From: a virus
IMG/VR virus record: IMGVR_UViG_3300045988_008819
Location: 1 to 5,887 of that record
DNA: 5,887 nt
Reading direction: 5' to 3' (one strand)
The notes beneath the pieces were generated by a model. It had not been told where the DNA came from, searched no databases, and was given only the letters and a program-made list of their open reading frames with translations. A program made the position numbers and the translations under genes. Every line of letters begins with the position of its first letter. Positions within the stretch are counted from its first letter, which is position 1. This document shows, one piece after another, positions 1 through 5,887 of the stretch.

Positions 1-55
1 GATATTGCACATTCGTGCGAAGGTTTCGTCGCTCTTGCTTTCACCAATGTAGCAG
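1..55. repeat. Terminal direct repeat, identical to 5833..5887; assembly overlap of a circular genome (unit length 5832 nt)
   Basis: Exact 55/55 nt identity between 1..55 and 5833..5887, checked by hand. Confidence 0.9.
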
Positions 56-102
56 TAGCTTTTTGCTACGCTGTCGTAGATGCCGTAGTAATTGTGAATC
101 AT
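1..102 (-). CDS. N-terminal 34 codons of an 80-aa wrap-around ORF (hypothetical protein with a GIY...YIG-like motif); the C-terminal part is at 5692..5832
   Basis: ATG at 102..100 on the minus strand. An in-frame TAA at 117..115 bounds the ORF upstream. SD AAAGGAG sits 8 nt upstream of the ATG. The reading frame runs through position 1 into 5832 with no stop. Translation: MIHNYYGIYDSVAKSYCYIGESKSDETFARMCNIM... Confidence 0.6.
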   Translation of the reverse strand, partial: MIHNYYGIYDSVAKSYCYIGESKSDETFARMCNI

Positions 103-223
103 GTTTTTTCTCCTTTACAGTCGGATGCCGCCCCGCATGGGTTTCTGGCTCAGGTTGATACTCTTCGTTTTTCGTGCCGTCACATTGAACATGCGTTTGT
201 CGGTTTTCATCGGCATTTTCTTT

Positions 224-445
224 CTATGCTTCATTGTTGTACTCCTTTCGCATTAGCTCTAACTGGATGTCGTTTGCCCATTTTTTCATTATCCAGATTC
301 GGTCAATGATTTTATGAGCTTCCTCTTTGTCTGAAATTTTCTTGATTATTTTGTATTCGGCTTCGATTTCGCGGTATAACTTATCCGCTTCCAGCCTTAA
401 ATCTTCTTCGGTCTGGTCTCTTACATTCCATGTTTTGTGTAGCAT
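224..445 (-). CDS. Hypothetical highly charged helical protein, 73 aa
   Basis: ATG 445..443 with SD AAGGAG 6 nt upstream. Same strand and operon context as the neighbours. Charged, coiled-coil-like composition; no TM segment and no recognisable motif. Confidence 0.55.
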   Translation of the reverse strand: MLHKTWNVRDQTEEDLRLEADKLYREIEAEYKIIKKISDKEEAHKIIDRIWIMKKWANDIQLELMRKEYNNEA

Positions 446-447
446 GT

Positions 448-552
448 TTACTCCTTTTCCTTCAGGATGTGGTAAATCTCATCCAGCTTTTCAAGGACTG
501 TCTTAATCAGCTGGATTGCTTCTCGCAGATCCTTGACCTTAATCAATGCCAT
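448..552 (-). CDS. Possible 34-aa amphipathic-helix micro-ORF (MALIKVKDLREAIQLIKTVLEKLDEIYHILKEKE)
   Basis: ATG at 552..550 comes 2 nt after the peptidase stop, with SD AAAGGGGGT 8 nt upstream. Its stop TAA (450..448) lies 2 nt before the next ATG (445). It fills an otherwise unexplained 109-nt gap in a tightly packed operon. It is below the track's length cutoff. Confidence 0.3.
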   Translation of the reverse strand: MALIKVKDLREAIQLIKTVLEKLDEIYHILKEKE

Positions 553-554
553 TT

Positions 555-938
555 TTATACCCCCTTTCTGTATCTCTCTTCACGTACGTCAATATGTGTG
601 AAATTTGTGTATCTGATTACGCCGCCTTGTTCCATGATGCCGTCTGCATATTTTGCGACTTCTTGACTGCTGTGTCCTTTTACTACGATATCGGCTGCCA
701 TCCCTTTGCAGTGGTATGAGTTTGGTGCTCCGTTTACTTTGCTGTTCCAGCTTGGTGTTCTGTATCCGCTGTTTATGATGACCGGTGCATTAAAGTGGTT
801 TCTGATTTTTTCCAGTGTTTCAAGTAGTTCTCTTGCTACCAGCAGTCCTTTCGTTTTGTCTTTGCACTGAAATTCTCTTGCTTTGAAGTGTTCGCTTACT
901 TTTCCGAAGTCTGCTTTTACATAGTTCACGTGCTTCAT
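555..938 (-). CDS. Zn-dependent peptidoglycan peptidase, peptidase M15 (M15_3/VanY-like) family; putative endolysin, 127 aa
   Basis: Family signature in the translation: ...NSGYRTPSWN..., SYHCKGMAADIVV (SxHxxGxAxD zinc ligands), and a distal His in FTHIDV. SD GAGAGGAAA lies upstream of ATG 938..936. A consensus promoter is directly upstream. Stop TAA at 557..555. Confidence 0.85.
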   Translation of the reverse strand: MKHVNYVKADFGKVSEHFKAREFQCKDKTKGLLVARELLETLEKIRNHFNAPVIINSGYRTPSWNSKVNGAPNSYHCKGMAADIVVKGHSSQEVAKYADGIMEQGGVIRYTNFTHIDVREERYRKGV

Positions 939-971
939 GCGGTTTCCTCTCTGCTGCGCGAAGCGCGGCGA

Positions 972-982
972 TTTTTTTTTTT
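972..982. repeat. Homopolymer T11 (A11 on the coding strand) between the -10 hexamer and the peptidase RBS
   Basis: Counted directly: 11 consecutive T. Confidence 0.9.
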
Positions 983-1011
983 ATTATAACAACAAAACCC
1001 GGAGCTGTCAA
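976..1011 (-). promoter_or_regulatory. Perfect-consensus sigma70 promoter: -35 TTGACA (1011..1006), 17-nt spacer, -10 TATAAT (988..983); predicted TSS inside the A11 run
   Basis: Minus strand: AAACCCGGAG-TTGACAG-CTCCGGGTTTTGTTGT-TATAAT-AAAAAAAAAAATCGCC...GAGAGGAAACCGCATG (peptidase). The -35 hexamer sits in the loop of the upstream terminator hairpin. Confidence 0.7.
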
Positions 1012-1021
1012 CTCCGGGTTT
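983..1021 (-). terminator. Rho-independent terminator after the 60-aa ORF: 10-bp stem AAACCCGGAG/CTCCGGGTTT (995..1004 / 1012..1021), 7-nt loop, followed by UUUUGUUGUU
   Basis: Perfect inverted repeat followed by a U-rich tract on the minus-strand transcript, starting 3 nt after the stop codon. Also T-rich on the plus side, so possibly bidirectional. Confidence 0.7.
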
Positions 1022-1024
1022 GGT

Positions 1025-1207
1025 TTATTCTTTTTCGGTGAAATACATTTTTACTGTTTCTACTTTTTGTAGGCTGTACAGCCCCGGGTGCCTGTTTGCG
1101 TAGTCTTCTGCTCTTTGTTTTGCGTATTTTGGTTCTGCGTTTAGTACCAGTACCGTGGTTATGCTGTCGTCAGCTTCAAGTTTTCTGAGTTCGTATGTGT
1201 GTTTCAT
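1025..1207 (-). CDS. Hypothetical small protein, 60 aa from ATG at 1207 (the track shows 63 aa from a GTG at 1216)
   Basis: SD AAGGAAGGTG lies 8 nt upstream of ATG 1207..1205. A near-consensus sigma70 promoter is immediately upstream. A strong intrinsic terminator hairpin sits 3 nt after the TAA stop (1027..1025). No TM segment and no recognisable domain. Confidence 0.6.
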   Translation of the reverse strand: MKHTYELRKLEADDSITTVLVLNAEPKYAKQRAEDYANRHPGLYSLQKVETVKMYFTEKE

Positions 1208-1227
1208 TTTTGGCACCTTCCTTTCTC

Positions 1228-1263
1228 TGATTATATTTTATCATATTTTTCTGATTTTGTCAA
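1228..1263 (-). promoter_or_regulatory. Sigma70-type promoter: -35 TTGACA (1263..1258), 17-nt spacer, extended -10 TGaTAAAAT (1243..1235); predicted TSS near 1228
   Basis: Read off the minus strand: ...AAAAAACTTGACAAAATCAGAAAAATATGATAAAATATAATCAGAGAAAGGAAGG...ATG. An A-tract (UP-like) lies upstream of the -35. Confidence 0.7.
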
Positions 1264-1291
1264 GTTTTTTTTGAAGAATTTTTCATTATAT

Positions 1292-1338
1292 GGCCGCTGT
1301 TGCGCGCTACGCGGCGCAACTTCCAGCGAAGCGCGGCC
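1292..1338. repeat. GC-rich nested inverted repeats: outer ggccgc (1292..1297)/gcggcc (1333..1338); inner 7-bp stem gttgcgc/gcgcaac (1299..1320); contains the 12-mer gcgaagcgcggc also found at 958..969
   Basis: Read directly. The 12-bp direct repeat gcgaagcgcggc occurs at 958..969 and 1326..1337. Each copy lies just upstream of a promoter-gene unit on the minus strand. Confidence 0.7.
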
Positions 1339-1376
1339 GTGGCTTTCCCGTTCGATTCCGGATTGCTTCTATTAGG

Positions 1377-1540
1377 TTTTCAACATTTTCAACATAGTTT
1401 TCAACTTTTCAACATTGTTAAACTTTAACACAATAGAGTGTTTCAACAATTCAACAAGTTTTCAACAAATCTTTCAACTAGTAATTATTTCTACTTTTCA
1501 CGTGATAACGTAGAATTATTCCTGTTTTCAACTTTTCCAC
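1377..1540. repeat. Iteron-like array: nine copies of TTCAAC, mostly as TTTTCAAC(A), plus degenerate copies, spaced about 8-12 bp apart
   Basis: TTCAAC occurs at 1379, 1388, 1400, 1408, 1442, 1450, 1461, 1473 and 1527. Variants TTTTCAC (1495) and TTTTCCAC (1533). The 9-mer caacaagtt is also repeated, at 1452 and 1561. Confidence 0.8.
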
Positions 1541-1545
1541 ATACC

Positions 1546-1561
1546 CTACTACTACTACTAC
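1546..1561. repeat. Trinucleotide microsatellite (CTA/TAC) x5
   Basis: ctactactactactac, read directly. Confidence 0.9.
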
Positions 1562-1577
1562 AACAAGTTATATTATA

Positions 1578-1628
1578 ATACGTGCGCACGCGTGCGCGTG
1601 TGGCTTTTCGCGTGCACGTGTGTGCGCG
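1578..1628. repeat. GC-rich block of two perfectly alternating purine-pyrimidine tracts (25 nt and 20 nt), including the 14-bp perfect palindrome gcgcacgcgtgcgc (1584..1597)
   Basis: 1578..1602 atacgtgcgcacgcgtgcgcgtgtg and 1609..1628 cgcgtgcacgtgtgtgcgcg both alternate Pu/Py without a break. They contain palindromes acgcgt, gtgcac and cacgtg. Confidence 0.8.
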
Positions 1629-1642
1629 ATTAGAATAATAAT

Positions 1643-1672
1643 GCCCAGTACCTTACTTGATAGGTACTGGGC
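1643..1672. other. Perfect 11-bp stem / 8-nt loop hairpin 29 nt downstream of the rep (VP4) stop codon; candidate terminator or replication-origin element
   Basis: gcccagtacct (1643..1653) pairs with aggtactgggc (1662..1672); loop tacttgat (1654..1661). Confidence 0.6.
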
Positions 1673-1685
1673 TAGGTGACACCGA

Positions 1686-2705
1686 TTATAAAATACCGCT
1701 CTTCTTCGTTTGTTTTTTCGTGACACGCTCTTTGGTCTCTAAGACGGTTTTATAATCTTGATTCTCTAACTGTAGTCTCTTCTGCTGCATTGCGTTTTTT
1801 TGTCGGTTCTGTTTAATTCTCCACAATCTTTGTGGGTTTTCTGCTTCCATTTGTTTTTCATAGTATCTTGGTATTTGTGCTCTTTTTCCGTTGGTACACT
1901 GAATGTAGCCTTGTCGCCAGATTTCTGCCTTGTGTTCTTGATAGTATTTATCTCCTAGACCCGGTTTTAAGCTCATGCAAGCAAATGGTTTTGTTTGCCC
2001 TAGCTCGTAGTATACGTTAGCTTTTTTACCGTCTATTTCGTACATTTTTTTTGTAACGTATCCTGCAACATATCTATATGTTTCTGGAACTGCTTGCGCT
2101 ATCTGTATTTGTCCCATTCCCCACAGACCTTTTAGCCATTCACTGGTATAGTATCCGTTGTGTTGAATCTTGTATAGATTTTCTAGGTCTGTTGGTTTCC
2201 ATCCGTATAGAATCATGTGGTAATGTGGTCTCGCTGTCTGTTCTCCGTACTCACCCGCTACAAAATAGCGTAATTTGCCCTTGTAAGCCTTTCTGAGGCG
2301 TTTTAGAAACTTTTGAATATCCTCATATAGTAAAATCTGAACGCTGCTAGGGCGCTTCTCTCCCGGCTTCCACGTGTATTGTACTTTTCGCATGATTTCA
2401 CCTGTTTTTACTATCATGCCCGGCACGTGGTCATCATCATACGTTAGCGTTATAAACCAAACTTCTTCTTTCGGATAGTCTCGTGCTTCCAGCTCTATGC
2501 GTGTTGTCCAGTCCTCCCTTTGTCTGATTCTGCATCCTATACATTGTCCGCATGGAATTAACATGATCTTTGGATTATACATTAAATCTTCATATTTTAG
2601 CTGTTTCCCGCTCAACTGAGAAAAGCGGGCGAGTGAATATACTCGCCCGCTCTGTTCTCTATCATTCGGGTTGTACAGTCGTATTAACGGCTTGTAGCAA
2701 CTCAT
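1686..2705 (-). CDS. VP4: Replication initiation protein VP4 (rolling-circle Rep, gene A homologue), 339 aa
   Basis: RCR motif I WFITLTYDD; motif II (HUH) RPHYHMILYG; motif III with two tyrosines YVAGYVTKK; Cys cluster CGQCIGCR. SD GGAGG lies upstream. ATGA overlap with VP2. Confidence 0.93.
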   Translation of the reverse strand: MSCYKPLIRLYNPNDREQSGRVYSLARFSQLSGKQLKYEDLMYNPKIMLIPCGQCIGCRIRQREDWTTRIELEARDYPKEEVWFITLTYDDDHVPGMIVKTGEIMRKVQYTWKPGEKRPSSVQILLYEDIQKFLKRLRKAYKGKLRYFVAGEYGEQTARPHYHMILYGWKPTDLENLYKIQHNGYYTSEWLKGLWGMGQIQIAQAVPETYRYVAGYVTKKMYEIDGKKANVYYELGQTKPFACMSLKPGLGDKYYQEHKAEIWRQGYIQCTNGKRAQIPRYYEKQMEAENPQRLWRIKQNRQKNAMQQKRLQLENQDYKTVLETKERVTKKQTKKSGIL

Positions 2706-3523
2706 TTATTTCTTTTTCCTCCTCTATTTTTGCTGAATTTTCCTCCTCCTGATTCAAACGGCACTGTTTTGTCTGTCTTTTCTAGCTGTTTCCATGTTTT
2801 CAGCAAATCTTCAGTTAGTTGGTATGGACTGCTGTAGCTTGTGCTCATCTGATTTCCTACGGCTTCTGCCAACTGATACCATTGTGATTTACTTTCGCTG
2901 CGGTTGTAGTAACTGTTTGGTACGTTGCCGTTTAGTGCTGATACTCCCAGTGCGCTTGATGCTGGCATTCCCATACTTGCGCCTGTGATTGTTGCGCCTG
3001 AGCCGCCCGGTGTGCTTGCTCCGCCTTGCGCGTATGCTAAGATGGGATTGATTCCTGCTTTTCGCATATCTTGAACGGTTCTTTGATATGCTGTATTGCT
3101 CATACGTTCCTGGAACTCTCTGTTTGCTAATGCTTCGGCGCTGTTATATTCCATAGCGGCGTTTTGCTCGATGTGGTTATAAATACCCTGTTGAATTGCT
3201 CCTAATGTGTTATAGCCCATCTGCATTAACATATTTTGACGGTTTGTTTTACTTTGAAAAGCGTTTTGTCCTCCTTGCCATTGATAGTATTTGTTGAGGT
3301 AGTCCATGATTTGCTTGTCGTTTGTGCCGCCCGCGCTCATGGATGTACTTTGCCCTCCGCCTTGGCTCTGGCTCATGTTATTGCCTTGGCTCTGGCTTTG
3401 ACTTTTCTGTCCGTAGAAACTTGATAGTCCGTTTCCAAGAAGTGACATTCCTGTCGTTACGACTTCTGGATGGCTTGCTAGCCATGTTCCTGCACTTGCT
3501 AGCATTGCTCCTAATCCTGCCAT
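2702..3523 (-). CDS. VP2: Minor capsid / DNA pilot protein VP2 (H-protein homologue), 273 aa
   Basis: Gly/Gln/Ser-rich low-complexity N-half (SQSQSQGNNMSQSQGGGQS). Conserved block EFQERMSNTAYQRTVQDMRKAGINPILAY, typical of Microviridae VP2. Sits directly after VP1. Its stop TGA overlaps the VP4 start as ATGA. Confidence 0.85.
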   Translation of the reverse strand: MAGLGAMLASAGTWLASHPEVVTTGMSLLGNGLSSFYGQKSQSQSQGNNMSQSQGGGQSTSMSAGGTNDKQIMDYLNKYYQWQGGQNAFQSKTNRQNMLMQMGYNTLGAIQQGIYNHIEQNAAMEYNSAEALANREFQERMSNTAYQRTVQDMRKAGINPILAYAQGGASTPGGSGATITGASMGMPASSALGVSALNGNVPNSYYNRSESKSQWYQLAEAVGNQMSTSYSSPYQLTEDLLKTWKQLEKTDKTVPFESGGGKFSKNRGGKRNK

Positions 3524-3551
3524 TATAAAATGGCCCGGATTTCTCCGGGCT
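3524..3551 (-). promoter_or_regulatory. Intercistronic hairpin between VP1 and VP2: 7-bp GC stem GCCCGGA/TCCGGGC with GAAA tetraloop, then CAUUUUAUA before the VP2 AUG
   Basis: Minus strand: TAA-AGAAAGGAGGAA-GCCCGGA-GAAA-TCCGGGC-CATTTTATA-ATG. The only SD-like sequence (AAGGAGG) is about 30 nt from the AUG, on the far side of the hairpin. Confidence 0.6.
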
Positions 3552-3562
3552 TCCTCCTTTCT

Positions 3563-5317
3563 TTATAGTTTTTCCAGACCCGGCACGCTATACAGTGGCA
3601 TGCATCGAGTTGTTTTGTTCATTACTCGGATTGCTCCAAAGAATTGCGGTTCATTTTGTACGATTAGTGTCCGTGCGATTTCGGTTTTTCCCTCTTTCAT
3701 CCACTCTTGGCTGAGTGTCGGCACTTCGTTGTAGTTGTCCGCGTAGTGCCAGAAGTCTAGTGTTCCGTCTGCATTGCTTCGCATTTTGCCGCTAACACGG
3801 TTCGGTTTCATGCGGTAGTCTGCCCAAGCTTCCTGATAGCCGAAAGTTTCTTCATCTGTGCTTGTGCCTGTCAGCATGATTTCTTTCTTTTTTACGGGCT
3901 GCTCGCCGATGTTTGCGAACTGCGGGAAATAGTAGTCCAATCTGTCGCTTCGGCTCCAGAATCGTTCAAGTCCCTGTTGATAGCTGTGGTCGTGACGCAC
4001 ACACATAACACCAATTACAAAGCCGTGCTCTTCAAAGCTTTTTGTAAAGGAACTTTCATTGATAGGAGTTACTGACATTGCGCCTGTTTCACCGATTGGT
4101 GTTCCGTTGTTTGCTTCCTGACCGCTTGTCTGTACGATCTGGTTCATGTTGACGTGATAGCGTCCACCGCCTAAATATTCCGGAATCTGAACGGTTTTGT
4201 CGCTGATGCTTACTCCAAACAGTGCTCTTACCTGTTCGCGGTAGCGACTGCCGCCACGTGCCAGCGCTTCATAATAGTGCTGAACTGCAAAGGCCTGGCG
4301 TAACTGGTTGATTGTTGCTGCTTCGATGTTGCTTAGATCTGTTCCTAACCATGCGTCAAAGAAGTTTGCATCATCTCGGCTCATTGTCTGGACGTATTGT
4401 CCATCGATTACTGGTGCTGTGTTTCCGTTGTTGTTTTTGTTTAGGCCGAATTTTGTTCCTTCGTTTGTGAATGAGATGCTTGTGTGATTTACTATTCCGG
4501 TGTTATATTCGTTGTTGAAATATCCTGTTCCTACTTTTCTGTCGGTCAGTTCTTTTTCTGTGTAGGCTCTTAACGGTGCGTTTCCTGTTAGTGCAATTGT
4601 CACTTCCGGCCCGCGCTGAGGATACGGCAGACACGATGAAAAATAATCATGGAAGCGGTTTACAGGTAAACAGTATCCGCCATTTTGTGCGTTCTTTAGA
4701 ATTGTTTCTTCAGAGATTTCGTCTTCTATTGGTCCGCCTGATGCGTATTCTGTACTTTCATCTCCTGTGTTCAGTACTGCTGGGTTTCCTACGTTTTGAT
4801 CTCTAAAAAATTCGTTCCAGATTTTCACATAAGCTCTGACCGGTAGTGCATTGATACTGTATTCTGCTTCTTTGTCTATTTTGATGCTTTTTGCCGGGAT
4901 TCCCATATAGTCCAGAATTGTCCCTTCGTCTGGGTATGCTCTGTCTGGATTAGGCCATATACTTTTGTTTCCTACTATGATTTGTGGTACTGTGTACGTT
5001 TTTGACGGCATCCACGGCTTATCGTCTGCTTCACCCATGAACTGTTTGAAATTGTCCCACAAAATCCGGTTCGGACAGAAGAAGTAATAGAAGTCTATAT
5101 ATGCGTCGTCCATTACAGGATATTTCGGCGTTGTCATTCGAATGATTGCTGCCGTATCTACGCTGAATGTATCACCCGGAAGAACCTCATCAACATAAAA
5201 TGGGATGAGTTTACCTGCATCGAAGGTTGTCAGGATGTTCTGGTCTCGTTTGAATCGTGTTCGGCTTACGTGCGTTTCTGGTACTTGGTTGAAGTGCCTC
5301 TCATTATTCCTGTTCAT
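3563..5317 (-). CDS. VP1: Microviridae major capsid protein VP1 (F-protein homologue), 584 aa
   Basis: The N-terminus carries the conserved gokusho-type motif TTFDAGKLIPFYVDEVLPGDTF. Size and composition are typical of VP1. SD AAGAGGAAAA precedes the ATG. The stop is TAA at 3565..3563. Confidence 0.95.
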   Translation of the reverse strand: MNRNNERHFNQVPETHVSRTRFKRDQNILTTFDAGKLIPFYVDEVLPGDTFSVDTAAIIRMTTPKYPVMDDAYIDFYYFFCPNRILWDNFKQFMGEADDKPWMPSKTYTVPQIIVGNKSIWPNPDRAYPDEGTILDYMGIPAKSIKIDKEAEYSINALPVRAYVKIWNEFFRDQNVGNPAVLNTGDESTEYASGGPIEDEISEETILKNAQNGGYCLPVNRFHDYFSSCLPYPQRGPEVTIALTGNAPLRAYTEKELTDRKVGTGYFNNEYNTGIVNHTSISFTNEGTKFGLNKNNNGNTAPVIDGQYVQTMSRDDANFFDAWLGTDLSNIEAATINQLRQAFAVQHYYEALARGGSRYREQVRALFGVSISDKTVQIPEYLGGGRYHVNMNQIVQTSGQEANNGTPIGETGAMSVTPINESSFTKSFEEHGFVIGVMCVRHDHSYQQGLERFWSRSDRLDYYFPQFANIGEQPVKKKEIMLTGTSTDEETFGYQEAWADYRMKPNRVSGKMRSNADGTLDFWHYADNYNEVPTLSQEWMKEGKTEIARTLIVQNEPQFFGAIRVMNKTTRCMPLYSVPGLEKL

Positions 5318-5699
5318 TGTTTTCCTCTTGTTTCTTTGGTTTGTTTTTTGTGTTTTCCTGCATCTGCTGCAGTTTCATTGCGTTGGCCTGTGCTGTTGCC
5401 ATCATTGCGTGATACTCGTGAATGTCGGTTGGCCACTCCGTGATGTCCAGGATTTCGTCTGTTTTTGTGCTGTCCATCAGACTTTTAGCAAACTGTGGGT
5501 CGAAACTTGCTTTGCGGACGATGTTTTTGATGTCACATTCATCTGCATAGCTTTCGATTTCTGCCTGAATGTCAATCGGTTCAGTTTCGATTAATTTTTC
5601 GTTGCCTTTTTCGTCTTTGCCCCAGACATACTGTTTTCTCATTTTTTCGCCTGGATTTGAAAAGAAGGGCTTGCGCCCTTCCTCGTATCGTTTATTCAT
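5304..5699 (-). CDS. 131-aa acidic protein immediately upstream of and overlapping VP1; putative internal scaffolding protein (VP3-like)
   Basis: ATG at 5699..5697 (MNKRYEEGRKPFF...) lies inside the CATGAATAA that carries the upstream ORF's stop. The ORF ends at TAA 5306..5304 and overlaps the VP1 start by 14 nt. The first 60 codons of the track's 191-aa ORF (TTG start at 5879) are the out-of-frame read of the wrap-around ORF. The protein is small, acidic and helix-prone, and precedes the capsid gene as scaffolding genes do in Microviridae. The product call is positional inference, not recognised homology. Confidence 0.5.
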   Translation of the reverse strand: MNKRYEEGRKPFFSNPGEKMRKQYVWGKDEKGNEKLIETEPIDIQAEIESYADECDIKNIVRKASFDPQFAKSLMDSTKTDEILDITEWPTDIHEYHAMMATAQANAMKLQQMQENTKNKPKKQEENNEQE

Positions 5700-5832
5700 G
5701 CGGTTTGCCCTCCCACACCTTGTCCGGCTCGATGCTCTTAAACTCGCCGGTCTCATCGTTGAAGTTTGCGACATGGTAGCCCTTGTAGTCCTCAGGCGAC
5801 TGCCCAAGGAAGGTCTTTTCGTCCTTTGCCAT
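5692..5832 (-). CDS. C-terminal 46 codons plus stop of the wrap-around 80-aa ORF (continues from 1..102)
   Basis: In-frame continuation AKDEKTFLGQSPEDYKGYHVANFNDETGEFKSIEPDKVWEGKPHE, ending at TAA (5694..5692). The stop lies in CATGAATAA, which contains the ATG of the next gene. This frame is G/C-rich at third positions. The other frame over the same DNA gives an R/S/T-rich junk peptide. The ORF is absent from the track because the window end splits it. Confidence 0.6.
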   Translation of the reverse strand: MAKDEKTFLGQSPEDYKGYHVANFNDETGEFKSIEPDKVWEGKPHE

Positions 5833-5887
5833 GATATTGCACATTCGTGCGAAGGTTTCGTCGCTCTTGCTTTCACCAATGTAGCAG
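5833..5887. repeat. Second copy of the terminal redundancy (same as 1..55)
   Basis: Same as above. Coordinates 5833 onward are equivalent to 1 onward. Confidence 0.9.

Follow-up and report, generated by a model that had tools for sequence, protein, structure and literature searches.

The stretch of DNA analysed here comprises 5,887 nucleotides (nt) of a viral record (IMG/VR IMGVR_UViG_3300045988_008819, positions 1 to 5,887). It is called the window (WIN) below, and all coordinates are those of this whole stretch. Its credible genes, taken from the list of open reading frames (ORFs) and Pfam matches, all lie on the minus strand, which is referred to as the gene or sense strand. Positions 1-55 are identical to 5833-5887; this 55-nt terminal repeat is an overlap of the assembly ends, which shows the window to be a complete circular assembly of a gokushovirus, a microvirus with single-stranded DNA (ssDNA), whose true genome counts ~5832 nt. 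The subject of this work is the junction between ORF60, a small gene headed by a promoter (P1), and the gene of an endolysin-like M15 peptidase. In this junction, a predicted intrinsic terminator (hairpin 1) and a predicted sigma70-type promoter (P2) are built from the same nucleotides, and they are followed by a run of 11 A residues (A11) and by a second hairpin (hairpin 2). Feature coordinates are collected in Table 1, and related loci are labelled with the letter L and a number.

Anatomy of the Junction

Read along the minus strand from 1030 to 930, the ORF60 stop codon is followed by AAACCCGGAG-TTGACAG-CTCCGGGTTT, TGTTGT, TATAAT, A11, TC-GCCGCGC-TTC-GCGCAGC, AGAGAGGAAACCGC, and the ATG of the peptidase gene. 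Hairpin 1 has a stem of 10 base pairs (bp), or of 11 pairs when a T.G pair is counted (the loop then being TGACA); 6 of the pairs are G-C, and the loop is 5-7 nt long. Its RNA folding energy is about -18 to -20 kcal/mol, a U-rich tract (TTTTGTTGTT, 997-988) lies directly 3' of the stem, and in a sequence scan both strands of the hairpin scored as terminator-like. The 111-nt region gives z = -3.05 when folded as RNA, and -18.4 kcal/mol (z = -3.2) when folded as DNA. No Rfam family was found in the junction region, the sole match being RUF6-5, which scores 21.8 bits where the gathering threshold is 70 (E = 0.85).

The nucleotides of this hairpin also belong to P2: its loop is the -35 element, while its 3' arm and the T-tract constitute the spacer. 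In the promoter scan, P2 is a 12/12 match to TTGACA-17-TATAAT with, in addition, a TG before the -10 element, the sigma70 type being assigned by consensus. By the 7-nt rule, transcription is predicted to start around 976, within the A-run. An earlier note on this DNA had described TTGACA as the hairpin loop, an exact 17-nt spacer, a perfect TATAAT, and 11 A residues, and both the sequence and the scan bear out all of these elements; the TGn motif is an addition to that description. The interval then proposed (976-1021) places the site correctly, but it leaves out 4 of the 11 A residues as well as hairpin 2, which is part of the same module.

Table 1. Predicted features of the junction and genes of the window (- denotes the gene strand).
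Feature	Position	Strand	Remarks
ORF60 stop TAA	1027-1025	-	3 nt before hairpin 1
Hairpin 1, predicted terminator T1	1021-995	-	Arms AAACCCGGAG (1021-1012) and CTCCGGGTTT (1004-995); loop TTGACAG (1011-1005) holds the -35
P2 -35, TTGACA	1011-1006	-	Sequence scan
P2 spacer	1005-989	-	Exactly 17 nt; ends in TGT; TG of extended -10 at 991-990
T/U-rich tract TTTTGTTGTTATA	997-985	-	After the stem; also 3' part of the P2 spacer
P2 extended -10, TGTTATAAT	991-983	-	-10 TATAAT at 988-983
A11 run	982-972	-	T11 after hairpin 2 on the plus strand
Hairpin 2	970-952		Gene strand GCCGCGC TTC GCGCAGC, C.A mismatch; plus strand GCTGCGC GAA GCGCGGC, U.G pair
Shine-Dalgarno region GAGAGGAAA	943-951	-	7 nt before the peptidase ATG
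P1 promoter, TTGACA-17-TAAAAT	1263-1235	-	TGn; A-tract before; heads ORF60
ORF60	1025-1207	-	60 amino acids (aa); listed as 63-aa ORF from GTG 1216
M15 peptidase, endolysin-like	555-938	-	ATG at 938; first gene after P2; Pfam Peptidase_M15_3, E = 1.6e-24; PHROG 894 endolysin, E = 2.9e-37
73-aa ORF	224-445	-	
Chlamydia-phage-type scaffold protein	about 5304-5879	-	
VP1 major capsid	3563-5317	-	Pfam Phage_F, E = 1e-134
VP2	2702-3523	-	
VP4 replication initiator	1686-2705	-	

Chance and Specificity

Matches to TTGACA/TATAAT were counted in 300 shuffles of the window. The expected number of 12/12 matches is 0.01 per shuffled window, and two or more matches of at least 11/12 are reached in 1% of the shuffles; the window has two, P2 and P1, which lie on the gene strand at a distance of 252 nt from each other. 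A chance motif match devoid of function would be in line with the weak promoter-like matches, which are not in excess (11 found vs. 8.8 expected in shuffles). Nevertheless, besides the rarity of the full match, the motif is kept in 15 diverged junctions while adjacent stem bases change, and the whole module, A11 included, is identical across three independent assemblies, which leaves this explanation with hardly any credibility. Among 129 unrelated phage promoters matching the P2 pattern, the -35 is enclosed by a stem of 8 bp or longer in only three, and hairpin 1 is therefore not a by-product of the promoter sequence. The overlap observation is real and not due to chance.

The promoter pattern by itself is not exceptional. 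Perfect promoters of this kind had been presented as rare in nature, a view that finds no support, since a closely similar pattern occurs in at least 120 IMG/VR matches on phage contigs. The same layout, with the -35 in a terminator-like loop, is also found in unrelated phage contigs, at 4745-4790 of L102 and at four sites of L150 (minus strand, ~4376, 6999, 9980, and 12543). These hairpins reach -11 to -16 kcal/mol, and three of the five stand right at an upstream ORF end. Both contigs carry arrays of consensus TTGACA-17-TGnTATAAT promoters (~14 in L150). As for further copies of the window-type hairpin, the IMG/VR search returned only loci already collected.

Conservation and Covariation among Related Junctions

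The loci compared were peptidase-linked and ORF60-linked, and were drawn from GenBank phages, IMG/VR, metagenomes, and assemblies encoding exact ORF60 homologues. They yielded 15 distinct versions of the junction among related genomes. All 15 have TTGAC[A/G] at the identical loop position (TTGACA in 14, TTGACG in one), and the spacer measures 17 nt in 13 of them and deviates by 1 nt in the other two (16 and 18 nt). The TGnTAnnnT motif is kept throughout, as TATAAT (8 of 15), TACAAT (6), or TAATCT (1), with TACAGT or TATAGT in further relatives. P1 is likewise nearly identical, spacer included, in six related loci (L003, L010, L013, L017, L031, and L009).

The stem of hairpin 1 varies in sequence, for example between AAACCCGGAG, AAACCCGGGG, AAGCCCGGGG, GCCCAGGG, AAAAACCGGAG, AAGACGGAG, AACCGGGG, and AAATACCCGG. 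In an anchored alignment of the 15 junctions, 91.5% of the cells are nonetheless paired, and 7 of the 11 pairs show changes on both sides. Double-change cells number 28, vs. 8.6 in shuffles, none of the 500 shuffles reaching 28; as a control, sliding the partner by 1-3 columns reduces pairing to only 30-59%. Covariation around a fixed loop thus argues that the hairpin is selected as a structure and the loop as a sequence. Such a structure-conserved stem with a sequence-conserved loop is the pattern expected of a terminator carrying a -35 element. Moreover, the tail after the stem is made of 53% T in the 15 junctions, vs. 18% for the whole sense strand; a T-rich tail is a requirement of terminators, not of promoters, and the P1 spacer contains 3 T in 17. 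The central proposal of the earlier note, a sigma70-type promoter sharing sequence with a terminator, is supported by this tail, by the covarying stem, and by the conserved loop/-35, TGn, -10, and spacing.

In one relative (L004; IMGVR_UViG_3300045988_013077, ~1400-1500), a natural deletion has taken away ORF60 together with the 5' arm of hairpin 1. Its end point is no more than 3 nt from the -35, so that a GC-palindrome block, described below, is joined to P2; TTGACA-17-TATAGT, the A11 run, and hairpin 2 are all retained. As the promoter is kept there without hairpin 1, P2 is maintained for its own sake.

The pairing data also bear on the suggestion that supercoiling or hairpin extrusion controls the promoter. 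Cruciform extrusion in the supercoiled replicative form would place the -35 in a single-stranded loop and turn P2 off, in response to superhelical density. This would suit the perfect 10-bp inverted repeat with AT-rich flanks around the -35, and extrusion can indeed affect promoters, as shown by the hairpin promoters of phage N4 and, reportedly, by the engineered cruciform-regulated promoter of Horwitz and Loeb (1988). However, the arms are short (10-11 bp), with a centre of 5-7 nt, and a cruciform needs pairing on both strands. The window has it, but in at least 6 of the 15 relatives good pairing is limited to a single strand, due to A.C mismatches (G.U on one strand only), with antisense pairing in L009, L046, L031, and L287 and sense pairing in L196 and L284. 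A hairpin of single-stranded RNA, therefore, fits better than a two-armed cruciform; the T-tract after the stem and the location 3 nt past a stop codon are, likewise, explained by RNA termination and not by a cruciform. No evidence for extrusion control was found in the window or in these relatives, and it is very unlikely to be the role of the hairpin.

Another explanation starts from the ssDNA genome of microviruses. The hairpins would be structures of the viral DNA, such as a complementary-strand priming site or a packaging signal, and the promoter match would be secondary. The viral-sense strand does fold both hairpins as DNA, at the energy given above, and this non-coding region contains a small family of GC palindromes of which hairpin 2 is a member. 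Yet, most relatives with ORF60 must replicate without the module, and this model gives no reason for the -35 being coupled to a conserved TGnTAnnnT over exactly 17 nt. In addition, the -35 stands in the loop, the -10 is unpaired in the DNA fold, and the promoter is sense-directed, so that it cannot act like the minus-strand origin of filamentous phages. This origin, reportedly described by Higashitani et al. (1997) as ssDNA hairpins mimicking a promoter, keeps its -35 and -10 base-paired within duplex stems and gives an antisense primer. What it has in common with the gokushovirus junction is an ssDNA phage with promoter-like hexamers at intergenic hairpins. Overall, this explanation is very unlikely.

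Hairpin 2 and the A-Run

Runs of 8-12 A directly after the -10 element are found in the window (A11) and in ten relatives (L004, L193, L010, L013, L272, L274, L282, L001, L284, and L003), all of them with hairpin 2. Most of these relatives have A9-A11, L003 being a case of a displaced A8. Outside this group, a divergent low-coverage contig (L273) has A12 without hairpin 2. Where hairpin 2 is missing, junctions have a leader of 27 nt and lack a long A-run, with the exceptions of L196 (G then A9) and of another promoter family (L019 etc.), in which TATAAA is followed by more A.

Reiterative initiation is known to result from homopolymer tracts located at the start site (PMC8812562). In E. coli, this effect of A and T tracts has been found across the genome, the number of cycles rising with tract length, and there are some indications that slippage helps productive initiation (PMC12709180). 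In the window, A11 spans every plausible position of the predicted P2 start. The earlier proposal of a start within A11 with reiterative transcription is, therefore, partly upheld: the start position follows from promoter geometry and slippage on such tracts is documented, but the A-run is not conserved. Initiation in the A-run with reiterative transcription is thus plausible for this lineage, and is not a conserved property of the junction.

Alternatively, A11 and hairpin 2 could mainly form an intrinsic terminator for the plus strand, halting stray antisense transcripts that circle the genome before they collide with P2 and P1. The A-run would then not be a device for reiterative initiation, an account compatible with that favoured here for hairpin 1 and P2. 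The plus-strand scan scores 952-970 with T11 as a terminator, with the textbook shape of a GC hairpin followed by T11, and A-runs of at least 8 nt co-occur with hairpin 2 across the eleven sequences cited above. In three lineages whose mismatches do not coincide in position, hairpin 2 also pairs better on the plus strand: -12.6 (antisense) vs. -8.2 (sense) kcal/mol in the window, and -9.7 vs. -4.1 and -10.4 vs. -5.2 kcal/mol in the two others. Finally, the extended -10 motif TGNTANNNT is over-represented (25 found in the whole window vs. 14.9 expected), with 19 of the 25 copies on the plus strand. Nevertheless, no convincing plus-strand promoter was found within 300 nt upstream, the best site scoring 8/12 and lying in coding sequence, and the scan gave no plus-strand promoter of at least 9/12 in 1-950. 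Stem and T-run are separated by 5 nt in L001, A-runs follow the -10 without hairpin 2 in L196 and the L019 family, and the strand asymmetry could reflect mutation pressure toward A on the sense strand, where 4-fold degenerate sites show an extreme skew of A over T (58% A, 11% T). A dominant role as plus-strand terminator is therefore possible, though not probable.

The excess of TGNTANNNT on the plus strand is a possible source of pervasive antisense transcription. A more specific candidate, a promoter in the 5' end of the peptidase gene making an antisense small RNA that uses hairpin 2 and T11, found no support, as its best site is the 8/12 match in coding sequence. An attempt to deduce the strand of action from wobble asymmetry was also abandoned. 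The signal first looked antisense-biased; with more sequences, hairpin 1 proved mixed (sense 8, antisense 4, neither 4). The antisense lean is confined to hairpin 2, and the asymmetry is confounded by the sense-strand A-pressure.

A GC-palindrome block at 1290-1343, just upstream of P1, has two matches to hairpin 2, one of 12 of 12 nt (GCGAAGCGCGGC, palindrome at 1326-1337) and one of 16 of 20 nt (palindrome at 1297-1316). Hairpin 2 may derive from this block by duplication or recombination.

Proposed Mechanism and Scope of P2

The sequence anatomy, statistics, conservation, and covariation established by this analysis are the basis from which we infer promoter activity, termination, start site, and slippage. 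The junction is likely to be the intrinsic terminator of a P1-ORF60 unit fused to an extended -10 promoter of the sigma70/sigmaA type. It would operate in the replicative, double-stranded DNA of a gokushovirus of the gut. Transcripts initiated at P1 would cross ORF60, fold hairpin 1 as RNA, and end in the U-rich tract around 990-985. The same DNA would serve as P2, with the terminator loop acting as its -35 element, the 3' arm and T-tract as its 17-nt spacer, and the end of the T-tract providing the TGn of the extended -10 TGTTATAAT.

Such an overlap would be feasible because the constrained part of each element falls in the unconstrained part of the other. A terminator would be indifferent to its loop sequence, in which the -35 is located, and a promoter would barely constrain its spacer, which houses the arm and the U-tract. 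As an arm of 10-11 nt and a T-tract of 6-7 nt fill the 17-nt spacer exactly, and as loop and spacer are both free, the overlap should cost neither element anything, and would save ~30 nt in a 5.8-kb genome. A host holoenzyme of the sigma70/sigmaA type, whose recognition of P2 is assumed, would then start around 976 in the A-run. In this lineage, where a start run of A9-A11 precedes a GC hairpin, slippage would be expected to add extra 5' A residues.

The scan found no gene-strand promoter of at least 10/12 besides P1 and P2, and no terminator-like site between the start of the peptidase gene (938) and the hairpin after VP1 (3550-3533). In a circular genome for which the scan gave no further strong promoter on this strand, P2 probably heads the whole downstream operon, driving the peptidase gene, the small ORFs, and the VP5-like, VP3, and VP1 genes and, by read-through, VP2 and VP4. 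The earlier description of the junction as controlling the lysis gene was thus too narrow.

Several observations weigh against this interpretation or restrict it. Good U-tracts are missing in L001, L009, and L046, and hairpin 1 pairs better on the antisense strand in L009, L046, L031, and L287; sense transcripts may, therefore, not be stopped efficiently by hairpin 1 in some lineages. Most ORF60 homologues (65-aa forms) overlap the peptidase start and have no intergenic module, and several 60-aa forms adjoin the peptidase gene within 5-10 nt, again with no junction, so P1 alone must serve in those genomes. Being missing from most ORF60-bearing relatives, the junction is optional: comparison of these sequences presents it as a dispensable insert of ~85 nt, gained or lost within the clade. 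The A-run appears from the same comparison to be lineage-specific, the tract being absent from most homologous junctions. Finally, recognition of P2 is an assumption, as neither GTDB nor E. coli provided a close relative by which to identify a host.

Comparison with Known Systems

In Salmonella, interoperon terminator-promoter overlaps are described as conserved over evolution (PMC6735719). At the tufB terminator and secE promoter, the polymerase load on the terminator is reported there to lower initiation at the overlapping promoter, an effect named "promoter exclusion" (PMC6735719). The principle is common to both cases, the terminator of one unit sharing sequence with the promoter of the next. 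The Salmonella overlaps are chromosomal and join operons of the translation and transcription machinery (PMC6735719). The gokushovirus junction differs from them by its location in a 5.8-kb phage, its fixed register, and its nature as an optional insert.

Class II (non-hairpin) terminators of T7 act as promoters in E. coli (bioRxiv 10.64898/2026.02.12.705533), and post-termination sliding of the polymerase has been modelled up to about 1 kb (bioRxiv 10.1101/2023.02.10.528045). The use of one sequence as both terminator and promoter, with re-initiation after termination, has been proposed as a way of streamlining compact viral genomes (bioRxiv 10.64898/2026.02.12.705533; 10.1101/2023.02.10.528045). 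Neither preprint describes a hairpin loop carrying a -35 element.

By analogy with the tufB terminator and secE promoter, termination-dependent coupling is possible in the gokushovirus junction. Polymerases from P1 that release their RNA within the P2 spacer could exclude P2, as proposed for that pair, or pass to P2 for re-initiation. Whether the nesting goes beyond compaction in this way, coupling two transcription units without a regulator protein, is doubtful.

With pyrBI, codBA, upp, and pyrG, the junction shares a homopolymer tract at the start site, which is here a predicted one. These classical reiterative cases involve U or G tracts sensing UTP or CTP, whereas the tract in the window is a lineage-specific A11 with no known nucleotide-sensing logic. 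P2 itself is an ordinary extended -10 promoter of the sigma70/sigmaA type, as found in phages and Gram-positive bacteria, and only its nesting in a terminator is unusual. The junction is thus built of ordinary parts, its particular features being the fixed register and the microvirus setting.

ORF60 and Other Features of the Genome

The closest database relatives of the window are gokushoviruses from human and pig faeces. No match to the genome was found in E. coli, and no close relative in 185,579 GTDB species genomes, the best hit being a metagenome-assembled genome of Christensenellaceae at 38% identity. An M15 peptidase in Microviridae was reported by Roux in 2012, without regulatory signals (PMC3394797), and our literature search on gokushovirus promoters or terminators returned nothing.

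ORF60 is strongly conserved. Its 94 homologues are all carried by microvirus-sized contigs that do not exceed about 9 kb, most of them being close to 6 kb. Its predicted model (pLDDT 94) has a beta-beta-alpha-beta topology. It gave no fold match in the PDB (best E = 0.18), and ORF60 has no Pfam or PHROG match. The idea of ORF60 as a regulator of P1 or P2 led to a dead end for lack of any family or fold match. A 34-codon ORF after the peptidase gene was considered as a holin and rejected, as it is not hydrophobic. An ORF of ~80 aa and the start of VP3 span the circular end junction (1-55 / 5833-5887).

The Bdellovibrio phage phiMH2K resembles the window in being A-rich (46% A, 27% T), while SpV4 is instead T-rich (65% T). 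The assumption that the T-rich strand is the packaged one was dropped, because phiMH2K, an isolated gokushovirus, is also A-rich on the sense strand.

Upstream of P1, at least 10 copies of (G)TTGAAAA(C) in three clusters (1376-1541, minus strand) have an iteron-like look. The part at 1376-1450 is the most conserved non-coding DNA of the genome, with 85-95% identity in a dozen gokushovirus records from human, pig, and monkey. Further upstream, 1580-1630 is a GC-rich tract of alternating purines and pyrimidines (CGCGCACACACGTGCACGCG ... CACGCGCACGCGTGCGCACG) with a direct repeat (1581-1598 / 1609-1626), and similar tracts occur at the equivalent place in MG945334 and MG945753. The VP4 stop codon is immediately followed by a stem-loop (1643-1672; perfect stem of 11 bp, loop of 8 nt) that is also conserved in L001 and L002. 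The complement of its loop region, ACTTGATA, is what we take to be the core of the phiX174 origin nick site, here on the antisense strand; the stem-loop could be an origin or a terminator.

Between the VP1 stop codon and the VP2 ATG (3523-3560, minus strand), a Shine-Dalgarno-like AAAGGAGG lies ~28 nt from the ATG, and a 7-bp hairpin (3550-3533) stands between the two, which its folding would bring closer. With its T-containing tail, this hairpin also scans as a terminator after VP1. Within the 5' part of the VP4 coding region, a GC-rich hairpin of 12 bp (2624-2651, plus strand) is terminator-like on the antisense strand, and shares positions with a weak minus-strand Rfam match to Termite-leu (E = 0.06).

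Significance for Gokushoviruses

No general concept is changed by these results. The fixed register offers a natural example of two signals sharing sequence, which may be reused as a compact synthetic part, and comparison of the related phages, some of which have gained or lost the module, suggests a portable cassette of ~85 nt. The conserved TTGACA/TGnTATAAT and the strong Shine-Dalgarno sites hint at a host polymerase of the sigma70/sigmaA type; as Bacteroidetes use a different promoter consensus, this argues against a Bacteroidetes host.

If the coupling outlined above is true, the activity of P1-ORF60, as an early unit, would set the timing or the level of the operon of peptidase and structural genes. 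Slippage at the A-tract start of this lineage would, in that event, help the polymerase to leave an over-tight consensus promoter. For the abundant uncultured gokushoviruses of the gut, P1 and the junction provide a concrete and conserved map of two predicted promoters and one predicted terminator.

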